Part shown: one piece after another, positions 13,463-64,000 of the stretch
How positions within the stretch are numbered: position 1 is the stretch's first letter
How the letters are laid out: the number at the start of each line of letters is the position of its first letter
Source of the DNA: a virus
Length of the DNA stretch: 64,000 nucleotides
IMG/VR virus record: IMGVR_UViG_3300031951_000017
Coordinates: 1 to 64,000 of that record
Strand: one strand, 5' to 3'
Translations under genes and position numbers: made by a program
Notes under the pieces: model-generated
What the model was told of the DNA's origin: nothing
Database searches by the model: none
The model's input: only the letters and a program-made list of their open reading frames with translations

Positions 13463-13476
13463 CGAACTTTTTATTA

Positions 13477-13483
13477 ATAAATA
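13477..13483 (-). promoter_or_regulatory. TATTTAT putative late promoter (1758-aa gene operon)
   Basis: One of 13 copies found ~5-35 nt upstream of gene starts. Confidence 0.6.
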
Positions 13484-13538
13484 CTTATGACCACATTTTT
13501 AAAAACGTAATCAACATAATAATAAACAGAACCGAAAA

Positions 13539-15377: not shown

Positions 15378-15381
15378 GTTC

Positions 15382-15843: not shown

Positions 15844-15848
15844 ATTGT

Positions 15849-15855
15849 ATAAATA
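15849..15855 (-). promoter_or_regulatory. TATTTAT putative late promoter (gp25/gp6)
   Basis: 5 nt upstream of the gp25 ATG, downstream of the nrdA terminator. Confidence 0.65.
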
Positions 15856-15893
15856 TAATGTTGTGAAATTTTAATTAAATAGTGTAAAAAATA

Positions 15894-15917
15894 AAAACCC
15901 GACTTGTGTCGGGTTTT
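15894..15917 (-). terminator. intrinsic terminator after nrdA
   Basis: AAAACCCGAC-ttgt-GTCGGGTTTT inverted repeat followed on the minus strand by a T-rich tail; separates replication from baseplate genes. Confidence 0.8.
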
Positions 15918-15921
15918 AATA

Positions 15922-18354: not shown

Positions 18355-18373
18355 AGTTTATAAAGATAGTAAA

Positions 18374-19321
18374 TTAAAAGTCATCAGTAAATGAGAGGGA
18401 CTCATTTAATTTCGCTTTTTGATATTCAACCGTTCTTGATTCGAAGAAATTCCCTTTCGTTTCAACGGCTATTTGTTCCATAAATTTAAATGGTTGTTCA
18501 ACATTGAATTGTTTTTTACATCCCATTTTAACAAGTAGTCCATCGACCACGAATTCTAAGTATTGTTTCATTAAATTTTGGTTCATACCAATCAATGAAA
18601 CGGGTAATGATTCAGTAATAAATTCTTTTTCAATCTCTAGAGCCGATAAAAGAATTTCTTTAATTCTCTTTTCACTTGGTTTATTTTCGACGTGATTATT
18701 CAACAAGTGGATTGCAAAATCACAATGTAAATTTTCGTCTTTGAAAATCAAAGAGTTTGCATTACACAAACCTTGCATGATTCCACGAGACTTTAACCAA
18801 AAGATTGAACAAAACGACCCTGAAAAGAAAATACCTTCAACTGCTGCAAATGCAACAAGTCTTTCTTGGAAGGACGCGTTTTCAATCCAATCTAAAGCCC
18901 ATTTAGCCTTCTTTTGAACTGCTGGTAGATTATCTAATGCCGTGAAACATTTGTTCTTTTCTTCCTCATTTGAGATATAGGTATCAATCAATAATGAATA
19001 CATCAATGAGTGGATATTTTCCATTGCAAGTTGCATTCCGTAGAAAAATTTAGCCTCTGGATATTGAACTTCTCTATAAAAATTTTCCGCTAAATTTTCA
19101 TTAACAATTCCGTCAGAAGCGGCAAAGAATGACAATACATTTTTAATAAAATATTGTTCATTTTCCGATAAATTCTCCCAGTCTCTAATGTCGTTTGATA
19201 AATCAACTTCTTCAGCCGTCCAAAATGCCGCTTGATGCATTTTATAATATTCCCATATGTCGTTATATTGGATAGGAAATATCACAAATCGGTTTGGGTT
19301 TTCTTTTAATATTTTTTCCAT
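18374..19321 (-). CDS. nrdB: ribonucleoside-diphosphate reductase beta subunit, class Ia
   Basis: 315 aa; [44 protein letters not shown] di-iron and tyrosyl-radical motifs. Confidence 0.97.
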
Positions 19322-19348
19322 AAAATGTAATTTAATCTGTTTTAATAA

Positions 19349-20722
19349 TTATACTTGTTGTTGTTTTCTTTTCTCCATAACCTCTTTAATTCTGTCTTTT
19401 TTCTGTTGCTCTCTGTTCTCTTCCAATCCTAAGAAAGTAACAGAACTTTCAGTGTCAATTTCCATCAACTCATTATTAAATTTACAATTTTCAAATACAA
19501 TTCCGTCTTTACCAATACGTGATTTTGTAATTGCAATTGTTGCCAAATTTAATTCTTTTTGTTGTAAAGATTTAGCAATTGTAATAATAACGTGACCAAC
19601 TTGAGCTTTCTTAATAGAACCCCCCATTTGGTCAGTAGTAACAACCTCAGATGAGATTGAACTTCTATTACCTTGGGTTGCAGTCCAACCAGCAATATGT
19701 AATTCATGACACATGGCTTCAAATGCTCTCATTACAGAACCTTCAGATTTCCATTCGTCCTCTAAAGATTTTTCAGGTGTAACACAATCAATATAATCCA
19801 AAATAATAACATCAAGGTTAATACCATCAGCAATCATCTTTCTTAATTGATTTTTAATCTGATTCATAGTTAGAGTATCTGAAGGAAGTTTTTTAAGGAT
19901 AAGTTTATTTTTCATCTTATCCTTAATTTCCTTCACCTTTTCCAAAACTTCTTCTTTGTGTTCACCCAATTTGTCAGGAGCAATTCCTGTCCACATAGTG
20001 AAATGTTTCCTTTGGATAATTTTTGGGTTATCCTCAAAAAATATCTGAAGAACGTTAAATCCCATATTAAAAGCGTGGTTAGCAATTTTGGATGTAACGG
20101 TGGTTTTACCTACCCCTGTTGGGGCTAAAATTACACCAATTTCACCCTTTGCCAATCCCCCTTTAAGTAAGTTGTCGATTCCTGGTATTCCCATTGGGAT
20201 TGGGTGTCTGTAATCGTCCGATAATACGTCATCAAGATTTTCAAAGACATCTCCAGTCCCCCTATCAACTTCACCCACTTGTAAAGCATCTCTAACCATT
20301 TCTTCAAGTTGGTCATAATTTTCGAATTCACCCGAATCAATGATTTTTTGAGCCTTACTCATTACTTTCTGTAACTCTTGTTGTTTACAGAATTTTAATG
20401 CCTTTTCTTGGACAAATGTTTTACCTTCGTCAGGGGCAATTTTAATTTCCCCAATAGTGTCAAGTACTATTTTTCTTGCCAATTCTTGTGAAATTTCACT
20501 TTTTGCAATTTGAGACAGAGTTTCAAAATTAGGACTAGCCTCGTATTTTGAATAATACTCTTTAATCATCTGAATGATAATCTTGTAGTATTTATTTTCA
20601 AAATAACTATTTTCAACAACCTCCACAATTGAATGTGCAAAGTCTTTATCTGTGATGATTTGATTCAGTAATTGTAACTGAAATGTTTGTCCTAAATACT
20701 CGAAATTTTTGTCTGTACTCAT
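19349..20722 (-). CDS. dnaB: replicative DNA helicase (DnaB / T4 gp41-like)
   Basis: 457 aa; Walker A APTGVGKT, LDYID, WTATQGNR, IAITKSRIG. Confidence 0.92.
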   Translation of the reverse strand: MSTDKNFEYLGQTFQLQLLNQIITDKDFAHSIVEVVENSYFENKYYKIIIQMIKEYYSKYEASPNFETLSQIAKSEISQELARKIVLDTIGEIKIAPDEGKTFVQEKALKFCKQQELQKVMSKAQKIIDSGEFENYDQLEEMVRDALQVGEVDRGTGDVFENLDDVLSDDYRHPIPMGIPGIDNLLKGGLAKGEIGVILAPTGVGKTTVTSKIANHAFNMGFNVLQIFFEDNPKIIQRKHFTMWTGIAPDKLGEHKEEVLEKVKEIKDKMKNKLILKKLPSDTLTMNQIKNQLRKMIADGINLDVIILDYIDCVTPEKSLEDEWKSEGSVMRAFEAMCHELHIAGWTATQGNRSSISSEVVTTDQMGGSIKKAQVGHVIITIAKSLQQKELNLATIAITKSRIGKDGIVFENCKFNNELMEIDTESSVTFLGLEENREQQKKDRIKEVMEKRKQQQV

Positions 20723-22221: not shown

Positions 22222-23205
22222 TTAGTTGTTTGTAACCATATACTCTTGAAAGAATTGTTTGAAGATTTCTTCCATAACCGGAACACATATTGAATTACCT
22301 GCAAGTGCTACGTGATTTTTAGTACTAATACTTGTTGATAATAATTTTTCAATATCCTCTTCCCTTACACCCATAAATCGGTAACCTTCACGTGCTGTAA
22401 TATTTCTTACTCTACCATCTCTAGTCATAATTTGTGGTGAACCACTGGTAGTTAAACAAGGTGAACAACCATCAATAGAGTAGATACGTCTAGCTTGGTC
22501 ATATTTTACATCATTTCGTCTAGCGATTAACCTACAAGTAGATTGTTTTTTTGGTTCATTAATCTCATATTCACAATCAATGAATAGGGATTCATCGACG
22601 TTTTCAGTCTCCACAAAATCCTTCATAGGTATATGAGTTTTTTTGTTTTCTAAAACTCTTCTCATTTTGATTTCAACTTCTTCATTAGTTTCACCAAAAA
22701 CTGACATCATAAAAACTCTTTCTCTGTTCTGTGGACACCCATAATCAGCACCATTTAACATCAACCAAGAACATCCATACCCTATTGAATTTAGATAAGT
22801 TATATGGTCTTCAAAATTTTTAATGTGGTTTTTAGAAATTAAATTTTTTACATTCTCCATCAAAAGGAACTTTGGTTGGTTTTTACTTAGAATTCTTTCA
22901 ACTTCATATAATAATCCACTTCTAGTACCTTTTTGAATTCCTTTTTGTATTCCTGAAATTGAGATATCTTGACAGGGAAATGAATAGGTTAAAAAATCAC
23001 ATTGTGGGAACGTGTTTTCATCAACCTTAGTAACATCGCCTAAATTACCAATAGTCGTAGTGTGTATTGAGTCATAAGCAATATTTGCAGTATTTAAAAT
23101 ATCACAATTTGCTATAGTCTCAAAATTAACCCCAATGTATTTAAGGGCCAATTCTTGAGTGCCATAACCTGAAAATAATGATATTACTTTTAATTTATTA
23201 TTCAT
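22222..23205 (-). CDS. DNA (cytosine-5)-methyltransferase
   Basis: 327 aa; motif I LFSGYG, motif IV FPCQ, motif VI ENV, motif VIII QNRERVF, motif X AGNSI. Confidence 0.93.
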   Translation of the reverse strand: MNNKLKVISLFSGYGTQELALKYIGVNFETIANCDILNTANIAYDSIHTTTIGNLGDVTKVDENTFPQCDFLTYSFPCQDISISGIQKGIQKGTRSGLLYEVERILSKNQPKFLLMENVKNLISKNHIKNFEDHITYLNSIGYGCSWLMLNGADYGCPQNRERVFMMSVFGETNEEVEIKMRRVLENKKTHIPMKDFVETENVDESLFIDCEYEINEPKKQSTCRLIARRNDVKYDQARRIYSIDGCSPCLTTSGSPQIMTRDGRVRNITAREGYRFMGVREEDIEKLLSTSISTKNHVALAGNSICVPVMEEIFKQFFQEYMVTNN

Positions 23206-43708: not shown

Positions 43709-46700
43709 TTAGATATTATCAAATGATGCTCCTGTTGGTGTAATCAAGAATTCGATGTCGATGAATTCTAAAGATTTGGTTGGTTTTACATAGATTTTAC
43801 CAACTAACTGATTTCTGTCTAGGTCTTCAGCTGATGAAGAAACCGTTACACGGAAATCATACAAACCTCTATCTCTTCTAATCGAATCCAAGATTGGGTT
43901 GACTGCGTCTAAGAAATCTTGTCTAACCTTTTGGTCATTTTGTTCAAACAACAATCTTACTGAAACTGCAGAAATCAACTTACGTGCCTGTAATAACAAT
44001 CTTCTTACATTCAATCTGTCTAATGCAGACTCTCTGATTTGTAAGGTCTTGTTACCCCAAATTACTGTTCCAACATCCGAGAATGTTGCGATAGGATTAA
44101 TTCTACCTTTGTACAATGTATCTCTATCTTCTTGAGTTAATTTCTTACGTGCTTTGATTGCATTTACAAGACCACGTGTGTAACCCGCAGATGCAAACCA
44201 AGGGAATGAGATGTTATCAGTTAACGCTAAGTTTCTACAAACTTCCGCTGTTGGTGGGATGTAGATTTGAGTGTTGTTAACAGTATCACGAGTCAATACC
44301 CAAGGATAGTAAGTAGCGGTGTAGTTAGAATCGATACCTGCCTCTTCCAAACTATCTACAACATCTTGTGGGTAAAATAATTCGTCAATAGTGTAAGTAG
44401 GTGTAAACAAGTTACTATCTGGTGTTGTTAAGATGTAGATAGAATCCGCTCTATCAAACTCAACCATATCGATAGCTTCCTCAACAAGATTACTATTATT
44501 CACAAAATCAATACCTGGAGTTGCAAACACGTTAATATTTGTTGCTTCAGGGTTTTCAAAAGTTCTAATACCCATTAAGTATGCGTAGTAGTCAGTATTT
44601 GCCCAATCTTGAGTTCCGTCACCGACACTGATTAATTTGAATGAACCATTACCAGTTGCTGTTGGGAATCTTAGACTTGGACAAGCTCCCCATAGGAAAC
44701 CTCTTTGGCCAACTCTAAATATGTCTCCATTGGTACGATATTCTCTGTAGATGTCCCATCCGTCAAAACCACCTTGTACTAAGAAAGTAAACTTACGAGA
44801 GAATAATCTGTAGTAAGGACTACTTGGATTGGTTGGTTCTGAATTAAAGGATGCTGCTCCGACTTCAAATGCCGATTGACCAGATAATGTATAACCTGAA
44901 GGTATTGTTACAACAGTTGCCCCACTATCCATATGGAAACCTTTAGAAATGTAAGCCCATTCGTCACCACTAGTGTCGAAACAAGGGTCGATTGGTCCAC
45001 GTTTTCCTTTATACATATAGTAATCTAAATCATAACCTACTGTGTCAGAAACACCTAGATATGTTCTTCTTACGTTGTCACCACCTGCTGGTACGGCATC
45101 ATCACCACCTGCTGTTGTTCCAAAAGGAGGATTATAAATGATTTCACCAGGAGTAAAGTACTTTGTTTTAAATACTGGAGATGGAGTTACCGCACCTTCG
45201 TATAATCTGTTTTTAAATCCTTCAAAACCACAAGGTACCGCATCAATAGGTGCGTCAATATTGTAGTCAATCATGATAAATTTAGAATTTAACACAAACT
45301 CACCATCAGAAGAACCTACTTTTTTAGCAATGTAGTTATTCTGTCCTGGGTCCATACCACAATTAGTGAATTTCTCTAAAACAACTGGTGCGTCGTCAGT
45401 ATCATAGAAATCTCTAACAACTAAATCAAATGATTGATTTGAGAAAGACACGTTCAAAATTGAAACTTTGATTTGGTAGTTAGCCGAATTACCATCAGCA
45501 ATTGATATAACTCTGAAAAGTTTGTATACATCATTACCACGTAATTCTGAAACAACCCAAGGTGAAGTTGAGGATTGGTATTTTTCTAAGTACCAACCAA
45601 TTGAATTCAATTCAGTATATCCTTGTCTGTAACCAGGTAATGCGACTAGTTCAGAACTAATACCACGAATATAACCTTTATTATATGCGTCATTAAGTAA
45701 GAAACTATATTTCTCTTCAACCATTAATGGGGTTGCTAATCTAGGTTTAGTAAAGTTACCATAACCTAATACCTTCTCAATTGCTGTAGAATCTGTCGAA
45801 GACATTGAAACTTTGAAGTTAAAGTTCGCCCCGTCGATTGTAGAACCAGTAATTGCAAAAGGTGAGAAAGGATTTAAAGTTGCCGCAGAATATGAACCAC
45901 TAAAATCCAAACCAACATCAGATGTACCACTTACTTGGTAAGTAGGTCCGTTGTTAGTTGAGGTGTAGAAACTAAAACCTCTTGACCTTAAAGTTGCAAT
46001 CACCATATTATGATATTCTTCATAAGTTTGACCAGTCATCGGGAACAAATATCCGACAACATTTCCAGAATAACAAATATTTGGAATATTTGGTGTTGAA
46101 GTTGGTGTTGCGGTAGGTGTTGGTGTGACATCACAAGGGTTAAAAGTAGATGTTACAGTAACAGTTGGTTCTGGTGTTGTAGTTGTAGTTACAGGAAGTT
46201 CTTCTAAATTTTCAATGATGAAAAGATATGAAAAACCTGAATATCCATTATTTGTTGTTGGATTCCACAAAGCATAATACCAAGTATCATTATAAGGTGA
46301 GGTAAAACTACAATTGTATGAAGAGTTACCACTTGTTCCAAGATAGTTAGTAATGTTTGTGAAACCAATACCTGTATATGCGTCAAACACATCACCAGGT
46401 ATAATACCCCAAACACCTAGTGAATCACCACTTAATGTTGTATCTGCCAAAATTCCTTGTACAAAACCTTTCATATCGTCGAATAAACTAGAAGTTCCAC
46501 CATCAAACTGAGTGTAAACATTGTTTATTCTTGTTTGGATTTCACTAGGGAAATCCTCTAAAAATGCAAATTGTGTTAAATCAGCTGAACAACCAGAGAA
46601 ACCAACATTGATTTCTGTAGTTCCTGTTATAATACAATTTGTCTCACAAATTGCTGGGTCAACACTAAAATTAGGAGATGTTGTACAACTATAAGGATAA

Positions 46701-47065
46701 CCTACAGTTGTTGAGTCAACATTTGCAATTGTTTTAATTGACCAAGATGGTCCAGCATCATAACCAGACAAACCTAATACTCTTGTAACAAAAAGTTGAT
46801 TTGATTGTTGTAGGTATGCCTTAGCAATGTAAGACATCTCATACTTTGGGATTTGTGTGTTTACGAATTTTTCGGGTGTTGTTCCTCCAAAATAAGTTTG
46901 GAATTCATCATAGTTTGTAATAAAAATTGGTTCAAAAGCAGGTCCCTTAACTGCCTCACCAACTAGACCTAATGTTGTTACACCAACACTAGACGTTACA
47001 AAACTTAAATCTCGTTCAGATGTGTATACACCTGGAGAAACGAATACTTTGTTTGCTGTTGCCAT
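43709..47065 (-). CDS. tail sheath protein (gp18-like) with large insertions
   Basis: 1118 aa; VSPGVYTSERDLS, GPAFEP, YYPW, PWFASAGYTRG, RDTLYKGRINPI, WGNKTLQ, LNVRRLL, FEQND, EFIDIEF. Confidence 0.95.
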   Translation of the reverse strand: MATANKVFVSPGVYTSERDLSFVTSSVGVTTLGLVGEAVKGPAFEPIFITNYDEFQTYFGGTTPEKFVNTQIPKYEMSYIAKAYLQQSNQLFVTRVLGLSGYDAGPSWSIKTIANVDSTTVGYPYSCTTSPNFSVDPAICETNCIITGTTEINVGFSGCSADLTQFAFLEDFPSEIQTRINNVYTQFDGGTSSLFDDMKGFVQGILADTTLSGDSLGVWGIIPGDVFDAYTGIGFTNITNYLGTSGNSSYNCSFTSPYNDTWYYALWNPTTNNGYSGFSYLFIIENLEELPVTTTTTPEPTVTVTSTFNPCDVTPTPTATPTSTPNIPNICYSGNVVGYLFPMTGQTYEEYHNMVIATLRSRGFSFYTSTNNGPTYQVSGTSDVGLDFSGSYSAATLNPFSPFAITGSTIDGANFNFKVSMSSTDSTAIEKVLGYGNFTKPRLATPLMVEEKYSFLLNDAYNKGYIRGISSELVALPGYRQGYTELNSIGWYLEKYQSSTSPWVVSELRGNDVYKLFRVISIADGNSANYQIKVSILNVSFSNQSFDLVVRDFYDTDDAPVVLEKFTNCGMDPGQNNYIAKKVGSSDGEFVLNSKFIMIDYNIDAPIDAVPCGFEGFKNRLYEGAVTPSPVFKTKYFTPGEIIYNPPFGTTAGGDDAVPAGGDNVRRTYLGVSDTVGYDLDYYMYKGKRGPIDPCFDTSGDEWAYISKGFHMDSGATVVTIPSGYTLSGQSAFEVGAASFNSEPTNPSSPYYRLFSRKFTFLVQGGFDGWDIYREYRTNGDIFRVGQRGFLWGACPSLRFPTATGNGSFKLISVGDGTQDWANTDYYAYLMGIRTFENPEATNINVFATPGIDFVNNSNLVEEAIDMVEFDRADSIYILTTPDSNLFTPTYTIDELFYPQDVVDSLEEAGIDSNYTATYYPWVLTRDTVNNTQIYIPPTAEVCRNLALTDNISFPWFASAGYTRGLVNAIKARKKLTQEDRDTLYKGRINPIATFSDVGTVIWGNKTLQIRESALDRLNVRRLLLQARKLISAVSVRLLFEQNDQKVRQDFLDAVNPILDSIRRDRGLYDFRVTVSSSAEDLDRNQLVGKIYVKPTKSLEFIDIEFLITPTGASFDNI

Positions 47066-54088: not shown

Positions 54089-54424
54089 ATGTCAATTATT
54101 AAGACAAGACCTGTTGACCGGGTTATTAATGGTCAAATTATTACTGGTTCTGAGGTTACCTTAGTATCAGAAACGTATTATGTTTGTAATGGTGAAAGTG
54201 TGGTAATTGTTAAAAATACACCATTCACAAAAATAAAATTAAATTCACTTAAAAACGACAGAGTCACAATTAAGTGTCTGACAAAAGTTTTATTACTTCC
54301 AGATTTCGGTAAAATAGATGAGATTTTTGATGAAATGGAGTTAGAAAATGGTGCTAGTGTTGAGTTAATATTTGCAATTGGTAACTGGTATATCCTATCA
54401 TCAGATGGGTTGAAACAGTCTTAG
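54089..54424 (+). CDS. hypothetical protein (small beta-rich, possibly structural)
   Basis: 111 aa; VTIK...GKIDE...GASVEL...GNWYILS resembles a tail-fibre-associated module. Confidence 0.55.
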   Translation: MSIIKTRPVDRVINGQIITGSEVTLVSETYYVCNGESVVIVKNTPFTKIKLNSLKNDRVTIKCLTKVLLLPDFGKIDEIFDEMELENGASVELIFAIGNWYILSSDGLKQS

Positions 54425-57216
54425 ACCATTTCTTCCCACCCTTCTTCAGCTAACTCATAGATATATTCAGGGTCAATTCCTCGTTTTTCCCAATATATTT
54501 TTTCTTGTTCGGTTATTGTTAATAAATCATCAATACTATCTTGGTCTTCGGGTTCAAATGGAACCCCATTTATTAATTTACATTGTTCCTTTGTAAAGAT
54601 ACCTCTTTTACTTGGGTCATCAACAATTAAGTTATTTCTAACTTCTTCACCAAATACAATCAACAATGGTTCAATACGTTTGTTAAACGTTACTATAGCT
54701 CTTGGTACATTGTATTCACCTAATAAACTTGGATTATTTTCTACTTCTGTTGGATTCAAACGATAACAATTAAGCTGAATGATTGAATCAATACTATCAT
54801 CGAGTATTTTACCAAATTCTTTTAGGTATTGTTCTTTGGTTTCATCTGACCAACCTTTTTTTGGTTTATTTACTTTCTGAACATCCCCATGAGAAGCCTT
54901 AACACCATTATTAACATAAAGAATAACCTCACCCAAACTAACGGCAATTTTATCTCTTATAGCCAATTCCATATGTGCCATTCTAGACATCTCATTACCA
55001 GCTTTAGTCTTTTCTTTTGAACGTTTACGATAATCATCCATAGACAACTTAACCTTTGCTCTTTGTGCGATTTTCATAAGTGGAATTTGTTTATTATAAA
55101 TATTTTCCAAGTATTCATAATACCACTCAACAAAATCTTGACCATTACCTTCTAACAACATTTTAATTCCTTTGTCCAAGAAATCTTCAATATATAAAGG
55201 TAGTTTCTTACTTTTGATGGAATTACCTGTAAGTTTAATCTTTCCGTTGTGTTCCATTGTTGCGTAGTTCTTACGAGCAATGTTCATACAGGATTTCCAA
55301 GTCCCATCACAATCAAGACCCATAGCACCTTTCATAAACATATCGTTAAACTCGGCAACATCCGCATCATAACCTTTATATTCCTTACCTTCTTTAACTA
55401 ACCAATTGTTACCCTTACCGATATACACTCTATCGTCCACACCACCTTCAGGTAACGAGAAGTTCATACCATCCGTATCACATACAAGAGGAGTATAACC
55501 TCGTTTCATAAAGAAACGTAACATCTGACGTAAGTATTGTCGTCCTGTACAAGTAATCTGTTCACCCATATACATATCACCCCAGTGGTATACTTGTGGT
55601 GCGGATAACGCTCCAAACATTGAGTTAATGAAAATCTTAATCGGTAATTGTTTGCGGTCATAAGATGTTGCTTGTTTTTTGTCAATATCCTGATATTCCT
55701 TAGCTAAGTTTTTATACTTGATACGGGTGTTACGGAAGTAATTTAACATTCCTTTCATCGCACCTGTAATATCGCAGGTTGGGAATACGTCATGAACCAA
55801 CTGAATGGAAGGATAAAGTGACGAGAAGTCAAGTTTCAATACATCGGTTGAAAAACCAACCTTTAGTAGTCGTGACAACCCTCCAACAAATTCTGTCTTT
55901 TCATTCTTAGCAGGGATTGCTAACTTATGTTTATAAGACCATGCTCTCATTTGAATTTCCCATAACGTAGCGGTTCCCATAGTTGAGACCCTTTCATATG
56001 TTGTTGGAACCAAAGACGCAAGTAGGAATGAACCCTGATTGAATTCTTCGTCAACTGTCAGAGTTTCTTCCAAGTCATCGTCAAGATATCTCTCAACCAA
56101 ATCATCACCTGTTGTTTTAATATATACGTTTGAATGTTTTGAACACGCTTCGTCAATTGTGGGGTCAATCCCCACTTTCTTATATTTACCATTTTGGATG
56201 TTCAACCAAAACGCTTCTTTCTTCGCGTAGAACGGACCGATATCTGTATGGTCAATGTATACACGGTCAGGTGCCTCAGCTTTAATATATTGAGTGATAT
56301 ACTTCAAACCTGCTGATTTAATAGATGAGTTAATTGCTTGAGCTCGTCTAACAGCATGTAATGTATCCACAACATTATAACCCCACATTGAAGTTTGGTT
56401 AAACCTTTCGACCTCGTTTGCCAACTTCAACATACTTTCAGATTGTTTGATTGGGTTCATTGGATTGAGGGTTTTTGCTATTTTCTTAATATCCAACTTT
56501 AACGCTTTGGCTCTTTCAAATATCCAAAACCAGTCAAAGTTGAATCCGTTGTAAGATGCGATAATACTTGGTTTGAGTTCATCTATTGTGTTGAAAAATT
56601 TGATAATACCTTCTCTTTCCTGTTCTTCAGTTGAGCACTCAATTACCTGACTAAAACCTTTATTGGTTTTCATCCCTATCATAAAAATACGACCATCCTT
56701 TGGTTCTAATGCGGTCGTCTCTAAGTCAAATACAAACCTCGTGATACTATTGTAATCGTCAAACCCCTTAAACAATCGTTTCTCTTTTGTGACTAAGAAT
56801 TGTTCAACAGGTGGTAAAATCAAAACTAAACTTTTAGTTTTTTCACCCCAAGGGTCAACACCCCCCTCTCTAAAAAATTGGATTAGTGAACGATATCCGT
56901 TTAATGATTTAACCATAAAAGTTAATCCTCTCTCTAGTCTATCATTACCATCAGTTCGTAATTTTTCAATGACAATTTTATGTTTTGTCATTGCTTCTTT
57001 TTGCAACGCCTTTGATGATTGATAAAAGTTTAGTCCACGTAAATCACCCACCCAGGCAAATGGGATGAATGTATCTTTTTTAATAAGTTTTCCATGAATT
57101 GGGTCTTCAATTATTTTCCAAATACAATCTTTGACGTAATCGTATTCTACTCCGATGATGTACTTTTCATCGTCATTTCCTTGTAGGAAATTCTCAATTT
57201 CTTCATTTGTTATCAT
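54421..57216 (-). CDS. polB: family B DNA polymerase with 3'-5' exonuclease
   Basis: 931 aa; ExoI FDLET, ExoII YNGFNFD, ExoIII YLDDD, motif A LDFSSLYPSI, motif B KIFINSMFG, motif C CDTDG, RKNYA. Confidence 0.95.
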   Translation of the reverse strand: MITNEEIENFLQGNDDEKYIIGVEYDYVKDCIWKIIEDPIHGKLIKKDTFIPFAWVGDLRGLNFYQSSKALQKEAMTKHKIVIEKLRTDGNDRLERGLTFMVKSLNGYRSLIQFFREGGVDPWGEKTKSLVLILPPVEQFLVTKEKRLFKGFDDYNSITRFVFDLETTALEPKDGRIFMIGMKTNKGFSQVIECSTEEQEREGIIKFFNTIDELKPSIIASYNGFNFDWFWIFERAKALKLDIKKIAKTLNPMNPIKQSESMLKLANEVERFNQTSMWGYNVVDTLHAVRRAQAINSSIKSAGLKYITQYIKAEAPDRVYIDHTDIGPFYAKKEAFWLNIQNGKYKKVGIDPTIDEACSKHSNVYIKTTGDDLVERYLDDDLEETLTVDEEFNQGSFLLASLVPTTYERVSTMGTATLWEIQMRAWSYKHKLAIPAKNEKTEFVGGLSRLLKVGFSTDVLKLDFSSLYPSIQLVHDVFPTCDITGAMKGMLNYFRNTRIKYKNLAKEYQDIDKKQATSYDRKQLPIKIFINSMFGALSAPQVYHWGDMYMGEQITCTGRQYLRQMLRFFMKRGYTPLVCDTDGMNFSLPEGGVDDRVYIGKGNNWLVKEGKEYKGYDADVAEFNDMFMKGAMGLDCDGTWKSCMNIARKNYATMEHNGKIKLTGNSIKSKKLPLYIEDFLDKGIKMLLEGNGQDFVEWYYEYLENIYNKQIPLMKIAQRAKVKLSMDDYRKRSKEKTKAGNEMSRMAHMELAIRDKIAVSLGEVILYVNNGVKASHGDVQKVNKPKKGWSDETKEQYLKEFGKILDDSIDSIIQLNCYRLNPTEVENNPSLLGEYNVPRAIVTFNKRIEPLLIVFGEEVRNNLIVDDPSKRGIFTKEQCKLINGVPFEPEDQDSIDDLLTITEQEKIYWEKRGIDPEYIYELAEEGWEEMV

Positions 57217-57303: not shown

Positions 57304-57684
57304 TTAACAACAAGCTTTGTCGGAAATAAAACTATCTTGTACGTTAATATATAGTTTTTCTCGTATTGGGACTATTAGGTTACCTTGTTCATTTCTCAAT
57401 AAAAATTGACCTTCATACCTTCCAGGTTTATTTGTATCCTTTTCAGAGAATTTATAATAGATATAAAACTCTGTTGGGGTTGTTTCATTTAAGAAATTTT
57501 TAGATACAAATCCTCCTTGTTTGGATAGGAATTTAGGAATACCTGTTTCAGTATCAACCATAGAAAATAGAATAGTTGATGTCTCAATTAAATCCATAAA
57601 ATTATGATAGTCACTTCTTCCATCCTTAACTACTTGCATTTTAAGTAATGGAAGAGTCGCACCCTTTTTAATATAAAATTCCAT
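57304..57684 (-). CDS. BppU N-terminal-like (baseplate upper) domain protein
   Basis: MEFYIKKGATLPLLKM...IYYKF...DT..PGRYEGQF...P. Start reassigned to ATG 57684 because TATTTAT sits 5 nt upstream of it, inside the track's extra 8 codons. Confidence 0.6.
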   Translation of the reverse strand: MEFYIKKGATLPLLKMQVVKDGRSDYHNFMDLIETSTILFSMVDTETGIPKFLSKQGGFVSKNFLNETTPTEFYIYYKFSEKDTNKPGRYEGQFLLRNEQGNLIVPIREKLYINVQDSFISDKACC

Positions 57685-57708
57685 AACAATAAATACTACG
57701 ATATTCAA

Positions 57709-59385
57709 TTAAGATTCTTTTCTTAATTCTTTGTCATAGTGGTCAAATCTATTGTGTTCAGTAGGTGTTGCTAATAAAATTCCAGCATTAATCAAATTTT
57801 CTTTGGTCATTTGGTAAACGTGAGACATCCAAGTTTGTTCGTGAGGGTGAGCCCATTTAGTATTTAAAAATACTTTACGACTACCTTCTTTGGTCATAAC
57901 CTGTGGCCAATTACAATAATAAACTTCCCCTGTTGCATATGGAACACCTTTATATGACATTATTTTATCATATTTTGTTTTGGGGGCGTTAGGGTCTAAT
58001 CCTTGTTGTGGTAACTTATCATTCTCAGGAAAATATTTTTGTCTAACATTCTGAGGTACGTTATACCAACTCCATTGTGTTGAATTGTCTCCGAAGAATT
58101 CCGTGAAATTCAATTTAAGAAAATCAAAACTATTTTCTTTGGTTATCAAAAGACTTTTTGTATAAAGTCTATCTATTTTTCTAACAAACCCATTCTTACA
58201 ATTTACATCGGGACCTGAATAGAAAAACATATCATCCTCAAAAAACATCATAAAATCGGAATCACTCTCATCAAAATGTTCCGCAATATATTGTCTACCA
58301 CCACATATTCCTAAATTTGTATGGGGTTTATAATGAGTAAAACCATATTCCTTACATAGATTATCATATTCCATATAAGTTTCAGAGTTTGTTGAATTAT
58401 TAATCAAATATTTTTTTGGAAGTTTTAGGAAGTCCTCGTCGTAGACCTCCATAGATTTAATTAATGTTTTAAATTGGTTTGGACTATTAAATGTTAAAAC
58501 ATATAAGGAACATTTTTTAATATTTAAATCAGTCTTAACTTGTGTTTTAGGGTCAAAAGTTTTTAAGTTTTCAAAAAATGGCCAAACTAATCCATTACCA
58601 GTAATTTCATAACGATGTATTTGATTTGGGTAATTGTGGGCAAGGATGGTGAATAAACACTCGTCCGCACCCATAAGACCTTCATTTATTGTTCTATAAA
58701 GTACATTATAATAATAATTGTTTATTTCATGTACTTGTTCTTTACTACCCCCAAAAAAACCACCTCGACACACATACTCAACAAAAGTAGTATTACAATA
58801 TTGAGCCATTTTTTTTCTTTCAAATCCGTGAATTTCATCATTTGCAGTGTATGGATAACTGATAAAAGTAAATTTATCTACAAATTGTGTATATTCTGGT
58901 AACCTATCAAAAACTTTATCTGTTGTAAAATAACCAGGATTAACAGTTGACGTTATCCCACCATCAATCCAATAAAAATATTCACTTCTAAATGGATTAA
59001 GTATAGCCGTATCATTAACCATAAACATTTTACACATCATCATAGGATTGTAAAATTCTAATCCCGCTTGTGGGGAATCTTTTAACCACCCTGCAAAATT
59101 AAACCATTCAGGATTTGTTCTAATTTTTTGTAATTCATTAAAAAATGGAAACCACGTTTTAAAATCCTCTAGCTCTTTGAAATAAACAACGGTGTTATGT
59201 CTCTTACGTATTTTCCAAACCTCAGACTCTAGTGACCTTGGAATCCAAATACATAGATTTGCATCAGTTTCTAGTAATTCAAAAAATTTTTGTTTATACG
59301 TATCAAAACTACGTTGTGCCCATCCATTTAAGTTTTCCCTACCTAAGTCCCACAATCCGGTGACAATTGTAACTTTACTATTCAT
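57709..59385 (-). CDS. two-domain glycosyltransferase (HtrL/YibB-like plus GT2-like)
   Basis: 558 aa; N-domain TIVTGLWDLGR...RSF..Y...K.FMV....NPF.SEYFYWIDGG...GGFFGG...ADE; C-domain NLGICGGRQ...MMFFEDD. Confidence 0.75.
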   Translation of the reverse strand: MNSKVTIVTGLWDLGRENLNGWAQRSFDTYKQKFFELLETDANLCIWIPRSLESEVWKIRKRHNTVVYFKELEDFKTWFPFFNELQKIRTNPEWFNFAGWLKDSPQAGLEFYNPMMMCKMFMVNDTAILNPFRSEYFYWIDGGITSTVNPGYFTTDKVFDRLPEYTQFVDKFTFISYPYTANDEIHGFERKKMAQYCNTTFVEYVCRGGFFGGSKEQVHEINNYYYNVLYRTINEGLMGADECLFTILAHNYPNQIHRYEITGNGLVWPFFENLKTFDPKTQVKTDLNIKKCSLYVLTFNSPNQFKTLIKSMEVYDEDFLKLPKKYLINNSTNSETYMEYDNLCKEYGFTHYKPHTNLGICGGRQYIAEHFDESDSDFMMFFEDDMFFYSGPDVNCKNGFVRKIDRLYTKSLLITKENSFDFLKLNFTEFFGDNSTQWSWYNVPQNVRQKYFPENDKLPQQGLDPNAPKTKYDKIMSYKGVPYATGEVYYCNWPQVMTKEGSRKVFLNTKWAHPHEQTWMSHVYQMTKENLINAGILLATPTEHNRFDHYDKELRKES

Positions 59386-59392
59386 AATTAAA

Positions 59393-60433
59393 TTATTTTG
59401 TATTTCCTAAATTTAAATAAAAACCCTCAAAAGACGATACAACATAAGTTTTTTCTGGGTCAATATTTGTTTTAAAATAAGTTCTCCATTTTTTTGGTAG
59501 TTCTTTTGCAATATCTGTTTTAAAGAACTGGTCATAATCAACAAATCCGTTATTTGATAAGTTTAATTTTTTATAATTATTTTTTTTAAGTTGTTCCTCT
59601 ACAATGTTTGTAACATCTATTGTAATTTTTTCTTGGCTATGAAGACTGCGTCCTTCATCCCGTTGTTCATTAAAATATCCATATTCAGAACTAACCAACT
59701 CAATTTTTAAGTTTGATAAATCAGTTCCATCGTAAAAATATTTTGGTATTATTGAGTAGTGTGAGTCATAACAAAAATGAAAAAATTCATAGTATTTTGT
59801 GTCGTTTTTAAATTTATTAGACTCCATTAACCATGCTTCACACTGCCACCTAGAACCTCCCCAAAAATTCATAAAAGGGATGTTATTTCTAATATAGTAT
59901 GCATTTACCCACCAAAAATTTCCCCAATACCAAAAATTGTGACAATGTACACCAACAATGTTGTAAGTGTTTAATTTTTCAAGACATATTTTCCATTTTT
60001 CAATTAAAAAATATTCAAGCATCTCAACCCAAGAATTTTCTGATTCAATTTTAAGTTCATCAATTTCAAAGTTTACAAAATTTTTGAACTTATTAAATAC
60101 TCCTTTAGTGTGGAAATAAAGAATTTTGGCGTCCTCATATTTAAAAGATAGTTCATACACTTGATTAAGTGCTAATACACCTTCTCCATAATTTTTGAAC
60201 CCATGAATAAAATTTATTTTTTCATATTTAATTTTAAGAGTTTCAACAATATTAGAGTATTCTTTTTTTTCGTCCGTTAAATATATGAAAATATCGTCAG
60301 CTTTCTCATATAACCCAAACAATTCTAATTTTCTTAATTGCTCCTCAAGTTTGAGTTGCCAATCATTAACCATGTAACAATGAGCAACAACAAAAATTTT
60401 AGAGTTGTCTATCATTTTTTTATTTTTTAACAA
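59393..60433 (-). CDS. putative glycosyltransferase-like protein
   Basis: 346 aa; ILYFHTKG...W..MLEYFLIEKW..CL...GNFWW...E.W pattern familiar from phage and giant-virus glycosylation clusters; embedded in the GT operon. Confidence 0.55.
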   Translation of the reverse strand: MLKNKKMIDNSKIFVVAHCYMVNDWQLKLEEQLRKLELFGLYEKADDIFIYLTDEKKEYSNIVETLKIKYEKINFIHGFKNYGEGVLALNQVYELSFKYEDAKILYFHTKGVFNKFKNFVNFEIDELKIESENSWVEMLEYFLIEKWKICLEKLNTYNIVGVHCHNFWYWGNFWWVNAYYIRNNIPFMNFWGGSRWQCEAWLMESNKFKNDTKYYEFFHFCYDSHYSIIPKYFYDGTDLSNLKIELVSSEYGYFNEQRDEGRSLHSQEKITIDVTNIVEEQLKKNNYKKLNLSNNGFVDYDQFFKTDIAKELPKKWRTYFKTNIDPEKTYVVSSFEGFYLNLGNTK

Positions 60434-62849
60434 TTATTGCAGTAATACTCCAATTAGGCCTTACTTTAACTATTTCACAACTTTTTATATTTTCTTCTAG
60501 ATATTTTGTTTCAGATTCTGTTAAATAATCAGAAAAAATTCTACCTGTTTTTTGAAACTCTTCTAACATTTGTAAGGTCGTAGTTTTTTTAGGGTCTCCC
60601 CAATTACACCAAGCTTTTTCAGGCATCAGGGCTTCAATACTAGTATGTAAATCTTCCATCACAAATATACCTCCACTTTTAATTGATTTAAATAAAGTTG
60701 CTAAAGTTATTTGTTGGTCGTACATCCTATGACTCCCGTCATCTAGTATTACATCAATGTCAGTATTTTCTTCTGAAAACTTTATTAGTTCTTCTTTTTT
60801 AGACTGGTCCAAAAGTTTTATACTAATCCTTTCAAAGTTATTAAATTGTCTAATTGATTCTGGGTTATTATCTAAACCCAAAATTTCAGAATTAACAAAG
60901 TAATCGGACCAAACTTTTAATGAATTCCCGTCTAAAACACCAATCTCTACAAATTTTTTAATTTGGTCTTTTATTGGTGAAAAAGTTTTTTCATAAATCT
61001 TACTAAAGTAGTCATGTTCGTGGTGTTTATCCGTGGGATAAATTTCCGCTAATTGTGTTAACATAAATTTTGATGTATCTATTTTTATATTGAATTTATT
61101 TCGATAAATAACGTCGATAGTTCTGTATGGGGTATTACCATATGAGAATGCATGGAATATAAATTTATTCTCATTGTAATCTCTAGAATTTAAATCACCA
61201 TTAGGGATGATTTTAAATTTAGTTCTATCGTCTAATCTTTCGCGTACATATTTTAAACAGGTTTGGTCATGCCAAAGTGCGTTTTTATAATGTGGATATT
61301 CTTCACAAACATCCCACCAATCACGCATAAATTTTTTAACAAAATCTGAATTTTTAACTAAGAATACTCCAGCATTAACGATTGAGGGTCCAAAATCTTC
61401 GGTCATCAATACCTCAAAATTACCATGAATAAATTCCTCAATACGTCGATAATTGTTACAGAAAATCGCATCAATATCTAAAAATAAAACATAATCTAAA
61501 TTAGGATTTTTTTCTAACATTTCTAAAACTAGTTTAGGTTTATACCAAGTTGCGGCACGTCCCTCTAGTTTAGTTCTTATTTTTTCAGTATTTTTTTCTA
61601 CAAAATAATAATAATGATTTTCTTCACAATATTTCTCATTAATAGCTTCAGTATACCTACCATATAATACGTTATCAGTATAAAATTGACAAACACCAAT
61701 TTTTAAATTGGTGTCTGCACATATTGTCGTACTTTGTTTTTTAGGGGTTTTATCTAAGACTAACCATTTTTTACCTTTAAAATCAAACATCTCACTTATT
61801 TCGTTAAGGTCTATCCCATCGACTTCGGTAGTTTCTAAATTTAAATTATTAAAATTATTTTGAACCTCCCCGTCAAATTGGACAATTAACCTACCACCTT
61901 CCTGAACTGAATTAATGTACTCATCAATTAATTTGGGGTTAGTGTTTTTAAAAATGTCAACATTTGGAATAACTAATGTGTGAATAGAGTTTTTCCCAAA
62001 AGGACAAAATCCTCTGAAATCATAACTACTCCTCACTTGTCTTCCATAGAACTCCCAATTGTATTTATCTTTATTGTAGGCGTACCACATAGCGGTATAT
62101 TCCCCATCACCATACCAAGTTTTTACAGGGGTGTGATTCCAAAAATTAACATCCGAGTCAATAATTACTTTTCGCTTCATCGGAATATTTTGGTAATAGT
62201 AGTCCAATACATCCTCAACAAAATATTGTCTTTTACCATTCGTATAATGAATAGTAAAAAATTTTTCACCTAGAATATATTGAGTACAAAGTAAATTTGT
62301 CGTTTTAACAACAAAATCTCCATTGTTAATGAATTCAAACAAAGCTTTATCTTCTATAGTTTGGTTTGTTAAATTTTCATGATTCACTAACCCACTACAT
62401 ACTCTTTTTGATAAGAATAGACCAGCACCACCACCTGAATTATTACGTAATACATCAGCATTACCTAATTCTTCTAAAACATTATCTAAAACATAATGAT
62501 TCACATAAGACCCATCGTCAATTCTAAAAATATAATCAAATTCCTCATTTTTCAACACCCATCCTATTGCTTCTTTTAATCTTTCAAACATAAATGATTT
62601 AGTCTGCCCTTGGATTGGTGGATTATGGTCGTAAGTCTCAGGTGAAACACAATGTAATATCTTGTCTACTGGGTTGTATGTAAGTTTATCATTACCTCCA
62701 TCAAAAAAAATAACTTTGTGACCTAATGACTCAACTTTAGGTACCCATGTCTCTAAACAAGACATTTTTCTTGTTAATGAAGCGTCAGATATTTTAATAT
62801 GATTACCATCATATTTTTTACTAGTAAATGCTAAAAAAACTATTTTCAT
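60420..62849 (-). CDS. multidomain glycan-modifying enzyme: GT31-like, GT34-like and SAM-dependent sugar O-methyltransferase
   Basis: 809 aa; ETW...FDYIFRIDDGSYVN...IED (GT31/Fringe-like); WYKPKL...VLFLDIDA...NAGVFLVKNS...WW...HDQ (GT34/MNN10-like); TDK...HDY...EIGV..G.SL..W..YF...DQS...ILDDGSH...GGIFVMED (MycE/TylE-like MTase). Confidence 0.78.
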   Translation of the reverse strand: MKIVFLAFTSKKYDGNHIKISDASLTRKMSCLETWVPKVESLGHKVIFFDGGNDKLTYNPVDKILHCVSPETYDHNPPIQGQTKSFMFERLKEAIGWVLKNEEFDYIFRIDDGSYVNHYVLDNVLEELGNADVLRNNSGGGAGLFLSKRVCSGLVNHENLTNQTIEDKALFEFINNGDFVVKTTNLLCTQYILGEKFFTIHYTNGKRQYFVEDVLDYYYQNIPMKRKVIIDSDVNFWNHTPVKTWYGDGEYTAMWYAYNKDKYNWEFYGRQVRSSYDFRGFCPFGKNSIHTLVIPNVDIFKNTNPKLIDEYINSVQEGGRLIVQFDGEVQNNFNNLNLETTEVDGIDLNEISEMFDFKGKKWLVLDKTPKKQSTTICADTNLKIGVCQFYTDNVLYGRYTEAINEKYCEENHYYYFVEKNTEKIRTKLEGRAATWYKPKLVLEMLEKNPNLDYVLFLDIDAIFCNNYRRIEEFIHGNFEVLMTEDFGPSIVNAGVFLVKNSDFVKKFMRDWWDVCEEYPHYKNALWHDQTCLKYVRERLDDRTKFKIIPNGDLNSRDYNENKFIFHAFSYGNTPYRTIDVIYRNKFNIKIDTSKFMLTQLAEIYPTDKHHEHDYFSKIYEKTFSPIKDQIKKFVEIGVLDGNSLKVWSDYFVNSEILGLDNNPESIRQFNNFERISIKLLDQSKKEELIKFSEENTDIDVILDDGSHRMYDQQITLATLFKSIKSGGIFVMEDLHTSIEALMPEKAWCNWGDPKKTTTLQMLEEFQKTGRIFSDYLTESETKYLEENIKSCEIVKVRPNWSITAIIVKK

Positions 62850-62854
62850 AAAAA

Positions 62855-64000
62855 TTATAAATTCCCAGTGATTCGGTTACACCATCCTTTAGATTTAGAG
62901 TAAGGCCAAACAACCCAATATTTTGGTTGTTCTGCAGTTTGGAAGTCTCTCCACAATTTACAATACCCGTCAGGGTCACGCATTAGGTTATTAATTTCAT
63001 TAATGTCTGCGTCTTTTCTGTATAAAGTATTATCTTTTTCATCGTGGAAAGCAACAACCCAAAATTCATAATCTTTTTCAGGTACCTGTGAAAACCCTAA
63101 ATCAATACAATGTTTGAAAATTCTTGCAAAACTATCTTCCCATTCCTGTTCAGTACTAAACGTATTTGGATTTGGTGGATATTTTTTATCTAGTGTCCAT
63201 TGTTGAACAGCTCGTTTACCAAAATGTAATCCTGCATATTTTTCATAGTCTCTTAAAGTTCTTTCAGTACCAAAACCAAAAACACCAAATTCTTCAGGAT
63301 TATATTTTTCACCATCCATCGAGAATAATTTACGATTTTTTAAATGGCACTTGTTATTTCTTTCTACCCACTTTTTATCGTCGTCCCATTGTTTTGTTCT
63401 ACCTTTACGGGTATACTCATGCCAAATAACAACTTTATGAGGGTGAAATAAATCATATCCGTGTGTATATGCTCTTGCCGCAATTGAAATTTCTTCTCCG
63501 TGAAAATAGTATTCAGGGTCGTGTTGAACTTCTTTTGAGAACTGTCCTACTGTAAAACAAAAATGTGCGGAATAAAATCTCGCAGGGATTGGCTCGGTCA
63601 TTTTTTTCCATCCAGGGATTGTCTCGGGTAAAAAGAAAACCGCACCTTCAGGAATAAATCTATCAAAAGCCATTCTCCAAGGCTCTTTAATTCTTGCGGC
63701 AGGGTCATTATCAGGGTCAAAAGACGATACATAACCCGTTAATAAAGGTTTCTTATGTCCTTTCTCTTGGAGTTGTGTAATCATTCCAATTAAGGTCTCG
63801 TCCCAGTCCTTATCAAATCTCATATGAGAATCAACCTGAAGAGTATATTCTTCATTCTTATAGACTTGTTGTATAAGATTTCTAGCCCAACAAGCACCTT
63901 GTGATTCGTTATAAGGGATATCAATAATTCTAAAACGTTTATCTTTTTTATATTTTGTAAGGTCATCAAATCCATCATTTGGGTTGAATTGTCTAGCAAT
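62855..64000 (-). CDS. GT60-like polypeptide/hydroxyproline N-acetylglucosaminyltransferase (partial, N-terminus beyond right edge)
   Basis: Frame is open from 64000. Hand translation adds ...SQGACWARNLIQQVYKNEEYTLQVDSHMRF, then FYSAHFCF...DPEYYFHGEEISIAARAYTHGYDLFHP...WHEY. The DSH and GEE motifs are those of Skp1-GlcNAc transferase (Gnt1)/GT60. Confidence 0.8.
   Translation of the reverse strand: MARQFNPNDGFDDLTKYKKDKRFRIIDIPYNESQGACWARNLIQQVYKNEEYTLQVDSHMRFDKDWDETLIGMITQLQEKGHKKPLLTGYVSSFDPDNDPAARIKEPWRMAFDRFIPEGAVFFLPETIPGWKKMTEPIPARFYSAHFCFTVGQFSKEVQHDPEYYFHGEEISIAARAYTHGYDLFHPHKVVIWHEYTRKGRTKQWDDDKKWVERNNKCHLKNRKLFSMDGEKYNPEEFGVFGFGTERTLRDYEKYAGLHFGKRAVQQWTLDKKYPPNPNTFSTEQEWEDSFARIFKHCIDLGFSQVPEKDYEFWVVAFHDEKDNTLYRKDADINEINNLMRDPDGYCKLWRDFQTAEQPKYWVVWPYSKSKGWCNRITGNL

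Follow-up and report, generated by a model that had tools for sequence, protein, structure and literature searches.

A GT60-led glycosyltransferase block in a large phage as a candidate system for mucin-type O-glycosylation of virion proteins

Glycosylation of phage virions has been documented in few systems, which use other enzyme families than the one considered here. Actinobacteriophage glycosyltransferases (GTs), such as those encoded near the capsid and tail genes of mycobacteriophages, act in the cytoplasm on structural proteins of the phage itself. In chlorovirus PBCV-1, the A064R protein, composed of two GT domains and a methyltransferase, glycosylates the viral major capsid protein, and chlorovirus glycans are atypical and N-linked. 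In protists, enzymes of family GT60 begin mucin O-glycans by placing alpha-linked N-acetylglucosamine (GlcNAc) onto threonine (Thr) (PMC3769586). Here, we analyze the first 64 kb (the window) of the 163,928-bp IMG/VR viral contig IMGVR_UViG_3300031951_000017 (GC content ~31%; completeness 56% per CheckV), where four minus-strand open reading frames (ORFs) at 57709-64105 form a glycosyltransferase block led by a GT60 gene. We propose that this block encodes a cytoplasmic, mucin-type O-glycosylation system acting on the phage's own virion proteins, a reading that is unproven and to which we assign a probability of about 0.6.

An orthologous block, ORF334-ORF330, is present in the Xanthomonas jumbo phage XacN1, where ORF334 is 51% identical to the GT60 protein and ORF330 is 42% identical to its HtrL-type GT partner. 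Gene order and strand are the same, with a DNA polymerase gene nearby in both phages; XacN1 differs in its middle genes, which are a carbamoyltransferase and two small ORFs, and in its host, a GC-rich gammaproteobacterium. The XacN1 block comes after baseplate wedge genes and a 3,313-aa (amino acid) protein with a TP tract, and purified XacN1 virions yield at least two Schiff-stained glycoprotein bands (PMC5852040). No relevant paper on phage GT60 or PF11397 emerged from literature searches, and a GT60-led mucin-like system is undescribed in the literature that we searched. The actinobacteriophage systems reported there use different GT families, with no GT60 initiator, Thr/Pro (threonine/proline) stalks or swappable cassette.

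The GT60 enzyme and its tandem GT-A partner

The block comprises ORFs of 558, 346, 809 and 416 aa, spaced by gaps of 5-7 nt, with one neighboring pair overlapping by 14 nt. An earlier note on this DNA had described a co-oriented, tightly packed four-gene block carrying about six GT-like domains and a methyltransferase; that layout is confirmed, with two of the domains being leads only. The genes and their predicted domains are as follows:

62855-64105, minus strand: 416-aa ORF, final 105 nt outside the window (in-window part 62855..64000); GT60/PF11397 polypeptide-N-acetylhexosamine (HexNAc)-transferase-like gene, assigned by Pfam, PHROG, fold and motifs
60420-62849, minus strand: 809-aa ORF, a fusion of the next three domains
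61740..62849, minus strand: N-terminal part (~residues 1-370) of the 809-aa protein; a lead to Fringe/GT31, motifs FRIDDGSY and GGGAG
61110..61712, minus strand: middle domain of the fusion, ~residues 380-580; GT34/DUF273-type GT-A domain (Pfam, PDB)
60423..61082, minus strand: C-terminal domain of the fusion, ~residues 590-809; class I S-adenosylmethionine-dependent methyltransferase (PHROG, PDB)
59393-60433, minus strand: 346-aa ORF (59393..60433) with motifs YFHTKG and GNFWW; leads only
57709-59385, minus strand: 558-aa ORF, the tandem GT-A partner, with the next two domains
58546..59385, minus strand: HtrL/YibB-like domain 1, ~residues 1-280 (PF09612)
57715..58530, minus strand: second GT-A domain, ~residues 286-557 (fold match, invariant E383-D384-D385)

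The full-length 416-aa protein matches PF11397 with an E-value of 1.6e-72 (245.3 bits, cut-off 21) and phrog_24687 with an E-value of 1e-168, and carries the motifs QGACWARN...LQVDSHMRF and FHGEEISIAARAYTHG. Across 33 homologues, D92 and H94 (within D92-S-H94) and G203-E204-E205 are invariant. By these sequence criteria, the protein is firmly a member of the GT60/PF11397 family, and the GT60 identity and DSH/GEE motifs given in the earlier note stand. The family is abundant in metagenomes, with more than 7,000 homologous proteins; the best 120 are 75-98% identical over almost their full length and lie on contigs of up to 320 kb.

The structural check of this domain gave a concordant answer. 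A model built on the homologue alignment adopts a GT-A fold (predicted local distance difference test score, pLDDT, 92.6), and in a VIA-align/Foldseek comparison of the catalytic domain, ranks 1-29 were all polypeptide N-acetylgalactosamine (GalNAc) transferases, the starters of mucin-type glycosylation, at Z 19.4-22.4. These alignments span 260-282 residues (~275), with a root-mean-square deviation of 3.2-4.2 A for ranks 1-28 and about 3.5 A typically; generic GT-A enzymes rank lower, at Z 16.9 or less. PDB sequence and profile searches with the GT60 protein found nothing at E-values up to 1, and no solved GT60 structure appears in the fold lists shown, which is a statement about those lists and not about the family.

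The animal GT27 GalNAc-transferases are thus the best fold match, and they have the DSH metal motif and a Gal/GalNAc-T-like GEE motif in common with the phage protein. They differ in sequence (11-16% identity), in their membrane anchor and secretory-pathway setting, and in their lectin domain. The C-terminal part of the phage protein (~residues 325-416) is instead a conserved beta-rich domain of ~90 residues; Pfam, which reports PF11397 alone, detects no ricin-type (beta-trefoil) lectin domain in the protein, and because the lectin domain is absent we do not class the protein as GT27. No transmembrane segment is predicted either, so the enzyme is probably soluble, like the cytoplasmic Gnt1 that modifies hydroxyproline (Hyp) of Skp1. 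With Gnt1, Trypanosoma cruzi TcOGNT-2 and Dictyostelium Gnt2, it has in common the Pfam family, DxH and GEE-type motifs and the GT-A domain; unlike these protist enzymes, it is encoded by phages and bacteria, bears the additional C-terminal domain and is linked to an HtrL-type tandem GT-A enzyme. The activity that defines this family is alpha-GlcNAc transfer from UDP-GlcNAc to a Thr or Hyp hydroxyl of a polypeptide; by analogy, polypeptide HexNAc transfer is predicted for the phage GT60, with indirect support from its fold ranking and from its linkage to Thr/Pro-rich genes.

The 558-aa partner is a predicted tandem GT-A enzyme with an acidic metal motif in each domain. Residues 4-258 match HtrL_YibB (PF09612; E 2.6e-16, 60.5 bits, cut-off 24.1), and W139 and D141 in domain 1 and E383-D384-D385 in domain 2 are invariant in the family. 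The model (pLDDT 91.6) gave two-domain Foldseek matches to LH3/PLOD3, Mimivirus R699, LARGE1, K4 chondroitin polymerase (K4CP) and COLGALT1, at E-values from 1e-11 to 1e-7, and the second domain aligned by VIA with B4GALNT1 (Z 16.4) and with POMGNT1 and GnT-I (Z 15.0). A PDB profile search with this enzyme produced chance-level matches only. We also considered whether it is an equivalog of E. coli YibB, which is ruled out by an NCBIfam equivalog score of 60, far under the cut-off of 264.9.

A conserved pair around a swappable cassette

Comparison with 62 related phage loci, 61 of which have a GT60 match, showed that GT60 and the HtrL tandem enzyme are found together in 53 of the 61. The two genes are either adjacent, often with a 25-28-nt overlap, or flank 1-10 other genes. 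These intervening genes fall into 46 BLAST families, including carbamoyltransferases, PLOD-type GTs, GT10 fucosyltransferases, galactosyltransferases, sulfotransferases, GT31 and GT2 enzymes, rhamnosyl-O-methyltransferase-like and FkbM methyltransferases, a second GT60, UDP-galactopyranose mutase (Glf) and a sugar nucleotidyltransferase, contents that by their family assignments serve oligosaccharide building and decoration. The cassettes turn over between relatives: 62% of phage pairs with GT60 proteins at 90-97% identity have no cassette family in common, and 40 loci display 27 different compositions. Homologues of the two middle genes of the present phage were found in 2 loci only. As judged from these gene families, the architecture is a fixed two-enzyme core with a swappable decorating cassette, of which this phage carries one variant. 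The full initiate-extend-cap assembly line claimed in the earlier note is overstated: conservation is limited to GT60 and the HtrL tandem enzyme, the middle genes are interchangeable, and the genome has additional GT genes at 77-89 kb.

The best-defined parts of the local cassette are the middle and C-terminal domains of the 809-aa fusion. Its middle domain matches the GT34 family PF05637 (E 4.8e-13, 49.8 bits, cut-off 23, with the best stretch covering profile positions 34-99 of 238 only), DUF273 (PF03314; E 1.1e-9, 38.6 bits, cut-off 30) and PF03407 (E 8e-5), and in the PDB it matches domain 1 of PBCV-1 A64R (2p6w, E 1.2e-3), in agreement with the GT34 assignment made earlier. The C-terminal domain matches phrog_21658 (E 2.4e-21) and methyltransferase Pfam families, and in the PDB it matches TylE, the demethylmacrocin O-methyltransferase (8ia9, E 9.5e-19), and MycE (3ssm, E 4.8e-11), which bears out the MycE/TylE-like methyltransferase of the earlier note. 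The domain is a relative of macrolide-sugar O-methyltransferases of the TylE/MycE type, with a sugar as its predicted substrate. Mycobacteriophages such as Omega encode homologues of this methyltransferase domain beside their GT genes.

The N-terminal domain of the fusion is tentatively Fringe/GT31-like. It belongs to a family with 43 stand-alone homologues of ~369 aa, and by hhalign this family aligns with a phage Fringe-like family at a probability of 79.5% (E 1.5e-5); GGAG is common to both, and DDG stands where the Fringe-like family has DDD. Atlas feature leads also indicated Galactosyl_T/Fringe (0.84-0.85). The domain has no Pfam match, a PDB profile search gave chance-level results only, and a hidden Markov model of its family found no relative in any related locus compared. 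The earlier designation as GT31 accordingly survives as a Fringe-like lead, not as a family assignment by Pfam.

For the 346-aa protein, we collected 933 representative homologues, many of which are domains within multi-GT proteins. Neither Pfam nor PDB sequence searches matched it, a PDB profile search with its family was at chance level, and Pfam on 40 family members returned nothing meaningful, to which NCBIfam added nothing. Its Atlas model reached TM-scores of 0.62-0.71 to clusters automatically named glycosyltransferase or part-DUF8361, with one row fused to GT34, and language-model leads point to glycosyltransferases as well. We treat it as a probable glycosyltransferase, as a lead.

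As a whole, the fusion resembles A064R: both are viral multi-domain proteins in which two GT domains precede a sugar O-methyltransferase, and the middle domain of the fusion is related to A64R domain 1. The present system differs in that its initiator is an O-linking GT60 and in that the N-terminal and methyltransferase domains of the fusion come from families other than those of A064R.

The core pair is not confined to phages. Bacterial genomes, when scanned, yielded 374 loci; 80 were kept, and the GT60-HtrL pair recurs in 21 of these 80 bacterial or metagenome-assembled genome (MAG) loci. In a Myxococcales MAG (L158:17-3649, plus strand), a single 1,210-aa ORF is a natural fusion of the pair, with GT60 at residues 2-408, HtrL at 416-689, an insert of ~250 residues and the second GT-A domain at 944-1209. 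In the isolate Jiulongibacter sediminis JN14-9, a compact chromosomal locus, in the company of UDP-glucose dehydrogenase and epimerase genes, has the order short GT60 paralogue, 262-aa protein, GT60, carbamoyltransferase and FkbM-HtrL-GT fusion. The 262-aa protein carries a long TP/SP tract and, at its N-terminus, a hydrophobic stretch that we read as a putative signal or membrane anchor. In a Gemmatimonadaceae MAG, a TP-rich protein (L127:9230-9955, plus strand) is encoded directly upstream of GT60; its start looks PqqD/RRE-type by eye and is followed by a hydrophobic stretch and a TP/SP tail.

Further, scattered glycan genes lie outside the window, at genome positions 77255-88868 on the plus strand. 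They encode a GT4-like protein (406 aa), a double GT2 protein (503 aa), a CmcI/rhamnosyl-O-methyltransferase-like protein (215 aa) and a GT2 protein (282 aa), and are interleaved with genes for a PolB-type exonuclease, dUTPase and PhoH.

Thr/Pro-rich candidate acceptors

Candidate acceptors are Thr-rich, mucin-like tracts, as in the mucins of T. cruzi (PMC3769586). Among 160 ORFs, 10 contain runs of at least five Thr, 18 runs in all; with Thr making up a few per cent of residues, chance would produce far fewer, the per-locus expectations being mostly well below 1. The relevant features of this genome are the following:

64150-64650, 64664-65983 and 70658-74530, same strand as the block: Thr-rich proteins upstream of it, past the window
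57304..57708, minus strand: 134-aa ORF, probably 126 aa from an internal ATG, directly downstream of the block
43709-47065, minus strand: tail sheath, 1,118 aa (phrog_23, E 8.9e-61)
46061..46207, minus strand: Thr/Pro-rich sheath segment (PVTTTTTPEPTVTVTST...TPTPTATPTSTP), a candidate acceptor inside the ~820-residue sheath insertion

The protein at 64664-65983 contains a ~120-residue tract of TPT[LNS]T-type repeats. Elsewhere, a 784-aa Thr/Pro-rich protein adjoins the portal gene, and the portal itself carries Thr tracts, as does the sheath. The conserved core of the sheath is limited to ~residues 1-96 and 827-1116, and the ~820-residue insertion between them holds Cys-rich and Thr/Pro-rich segments; the 589-aa sheath of a complete relative (G004) lacks the insertion and aligns only to residues 6-96 and 915-1115. 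The sheath peptide PVTTTTTPEPTVTVT, put forward earlier as an acceptor, does exist, and the PVTTTTTPEPTVTVT...TPTPTATPTSTP segment of the insertion is a candidate acceptor. By homology, only the sheath and the portal are virion proteins, and we infer a virion location for the other Thr/Pro-rich proteins. The proposal in the earlier note that mucin-like inserts of structural proteins supply the acceptors is to this extent upheld by Thr/Pro-rich candidates near the block, whereas the placement of most of them in the virion is conditional.

Thr/Pro-rich genes are linked to the module beyond this genome. In 28 of the 37 phage lineages left after dereplication (21/27 and 11/15 at coarser clustering), such genes are found no more than 10 kb from GT60, against a background in which 21-37% of positions in four genomes qualify, and within phage flanks they lie within 3 kb of the module in 54 of 91 cases (p 4e-5). 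In bacterial loci, Ser/Thr/Pro-rich (STP-rich) genes are found within 3 kb of the module in 16 of 22 (p 2e-4); this distance-based test is significant, whereas strict next-gene adjacency of Thr/Pro-rich genes is not (5/24, p 0.18). One phage locus consists of a bare GT60-HtrL pair between Thr/Pro-rich giants of 2,891 and 2,574 aa. The 174-kb genome of G004 encodes giants of 2,350 aa (13255-20307, minus strand) and 1,730 aa (130079-135271, minus strand), with ~31% threonine, the second of which adjoins the sheath gene and has at its C-terminus a Gly_rich_2 domain, a type known from phage tail fibers. Fiber- or adhesin-type domains in the Thr/Pro-rich proteins of relatives include Gly_rich_2, DUF285 and FGE-sulfatase-like domains.

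The gene directly downstream of the block had been called BppU-like in the earlier note, which we could not confirm. The 134-aa ORF at this position has no match in Pfam or PHROG, and the next gene encodes a family B DNA polymerase (54421-57216; PF00136, PF03104, phrog_262). The ORF is homologous to the N-terminal module of Thr/Pro-rich proteins (438-893 aa, 14-25% Thr) that relatives encode in the same position, right after the GT block.

Hydroxylation of proline ahead of GlcNAc transfer was also considered. A 209-aa protein (genome 66883-67512, minus strand) shows by eye an HYD...H...RxxxxS (HxD...H...R) pattern suggestive of a 2-oxoglutarate-Fe(II) oxygenase. It has no Pfam match and no homologue in the related loci, and we dropped a prolyl-hydroxylase/Hyp-GlcNAc route like the Skp1 pathway.

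Proposed mechanism and alternative targets

We suggest that, in the infected cell and during synthesis of the phage proteins, the soluble GT60 would attach the initial HexNAc to Thr or Ser within Thr/Pro-rich tracts; by analogy, this sugar would be alpha-GlcNAc, with UDP-GlcNAc as the donor. The tandem GT-A enzyme, with its HtrL and second GT-A domains, would add the next one or two sugars, and the lineage-specific cassette would finish the chain; in this phage, the Fringe-like GT, the GT34/A64R-like GT, the TylE/MycE-type methyltransferase and the 346-aa probable GT might together yield a methylated oligosaccharide. Likely acceptors would be the proteins at 64150-64650, 64664-65983 and 70658-74530, the 784-aa neighbor of the portal and the Thr/Pro segment of the sheath insertion. 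The donor sugar, acceptor residues, order of steps and virion location of the products are inferred from comparison with known systems.

Three lines of evidence point to protein, as opposed to DNA or an exported polysaccharide, as the target: the linkage to Thr/Pro-rich genes, the recurrence of the module in bacteria and the absence of rival machinery. A protein target in preference to DNA is favored by the comparative data and by the XacN1 paper, whereas the glycan, its donor sugar and the acceptor site are conditional on the mechanism above.

Several observations weigh against glycosylation of the virion. The linkage statistics are support, not proof, since they are inflated by shared ancestry and by the position of the module at the edge of a structural block, and in G004 the giant Thr-rich genes lie at least 38 kb from GT60. 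Thr/Pro tracts are commonly plain linkers in fiber-like proteins, and the module-adjacent Thr/Pro-rich proteins of this genome have no virion domain recognizable by Pfam or PHROG. The block abuts a DNA polymerase gene, with the further GT genes at 77-89 kb standing among nucleotide-metabolism genes, and the absence of DNA-modification genes, as judged from gene content, holds for relatives, the present contig being 56% complete. XacN1 has another annotated GT, and in the description of that phage GT60 went unrecognized and the stained bands were not assigned to genes (PMC5852040).

The first alternative is that the block remodels host-surface glycans (lipopolysaccharide [LPS] core, O-antigen, capsule or surface glycoproteins), for instance against superinfection, and that the virion is not its target. 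We consider this unlikely, although it has real attractions. E. coli htrL/yibB lies near LPS core genes, wholesale swaps of cassettes between conserved flanks resemble O-antigen and capsule loci, and the Thr/Pro-rich protein with a hydrophobic start in the bacterial locus would be an envelope protein. Iyer and co-workers have read polymorphic GT clusters of jumbo phages in the same way, as remodeling host-surface glycans (PMC7824862). To look for the machinery of such a task, we scanned every ORF in four genomes for hydropathy: no protein has more than 4 transmembrane-like segments, and no module protein has any; these genomes therefore appear to encode no flippase, polymerase or lipid-carrier transferase, that is, no polytopic protein of the Wzx, Wzy, WecA or ligase type. 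The GT60 fold also scores clearly higher against peptide-directed initiators than against GT-A enzymes that act on lipids or sugars, Thr/Pro-rich genes cluster at the module, and XacN1 virions carry glycoproteins.

A second alternative accepts the glycosylation of the Thr/Pro-rich proteins and places them outside the virion, as released or cell-associated products such as matrix-binding or decoy mucins. The genomic setting makes this improbable in our view: Thr/Pro-rich genes lie in structural runs, after the baseplate wedge genes in XacN1, by the portal here and by the sheath in G004, and sheath and portal have Thr tracts of their own. The Gly_rich_2 end of one giant and the glycoprotein staining of XacN1 virions point the same way. 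The alternative draws its strength from the lack of any known virion family among the module-adjacent Thr/Pro-rich proteins, from the bacterial counterpart, which looks like an anchored or secreted envelope protein, and from the BspA-like DUF285 and lectin-like FGE-sulfatase domains of some relatives, which are typical of cell-surface adhesins.

Glycosylation of hydroxymethylated bases in the phage DNA against restriction, in T-even style, is very unlikely. In three complete relatives with the pair, two of which have terminal repeats, there was no match to PF00303 (ThyA-like hydroxymethylase), PF12851 (TET/JBP) or PF00145 (C5 methylase), and no ThyA-like or TET/JBP gene is present in this 56%-complete contig, which does hold two C5 DNA cytosine methyltransferase genes (22249-23193, minus strand, and 158551-159393, plus strand; PF00145 E 1e-62 and 4e-42). 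The DNA polymerase gene nearby and the other GT genes among dUTPase, exonuclease and PhoH genes would suit DNA as a target, as would a weak match of the second domain of the 558-aa protein to phrog_842, a beta-glucosyl-hydroxymethylcytosine alpha-glucosyltransferase (E 0.005). Against this, the GT60 fold matches peptide-directed enzymes, and DNA sugars are not known to involve cassettes that run to 10 genes and include fucosyl-, carbamoyl- and sulfotransferases. BssHII and NaeI are blocked by cytosine modification. XacN1 DNA was cut by both enzymes and by SpeI when the genome was mapped (PMC5852040). Separately, a 71%-complete relative of the closest clade carries a ThyA-family gene, a thymidylate synthase or hydroxymethylase (L070, G002:C1:124234-125370; E 1e-88).

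That the enzymes make or decorate a small glycosylated metabolite, with ordinary Thr/Pro linkers nearby by chance, is just as hard to credit: the tailoring of natural products is a classic role of TylE/MycE-type O-methyltransferases and NodU/CmcH-type carbamoyltransferases, and one bacterial GT60 neighbor starts PqqD/RRE-type by eye, but no aglycone-forming genes were seen beside the module, GT60 members are to our knowledge known only as polypeptide transferases, and the adjacency of Thr/Pro-rich genes recurs across phyla.

If the block does glycosylate virion proteins, many environmental jumbo phages would have variable glycan coats on their fibers or sheath, with consequences for host recognition, particle stability, stickiness and antigenicity, and mucin-type O-glycosylation would extend to prokaryotic viruses and bacteria; the number of homologues suggests that the system is widespread. 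A broader proposal, possible but on the doubtful side, is that a mucin-type system homologous to the eukaryotic GT60/GT27 initiators is common to large phages and to bacteria from several phyla, in which the fixed core might prime Thr/Pro stalks and a cassette swapped in serotype-like fashion might set the outer sugars and their decorations (methyl, carbamoyl, sulfate, fucose, galactofuranose). The resulting variable virion 'glycocalyx' could be under diversifying selection for adsorption, defense or the avoidance of capture or grazing, and such a system could be a source of eukaryotic mucin-type initiation. Both XacN1 (ORF334-ORF330) and J. sediminis JN14-9 are cultured and carry the module, which makes virion glycosylation by the module directly testable.

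Two scans of the 54-64 kb region gave null results: a sigma-70 promoter scan found 46 sites against 49.9 in shuffled sequence, no excess, and a nucleotide search against cultured phages returned zero matches. As to the host, SprB repeats (PF13573) occur in a GT60 neighbor of a close relative (L008:6661-9879, plus strand), and the nearest MAG-binned copies are labeled Saprospiraceae or Bacteroidetes, hints of a Bacteroidota host for this phage group.

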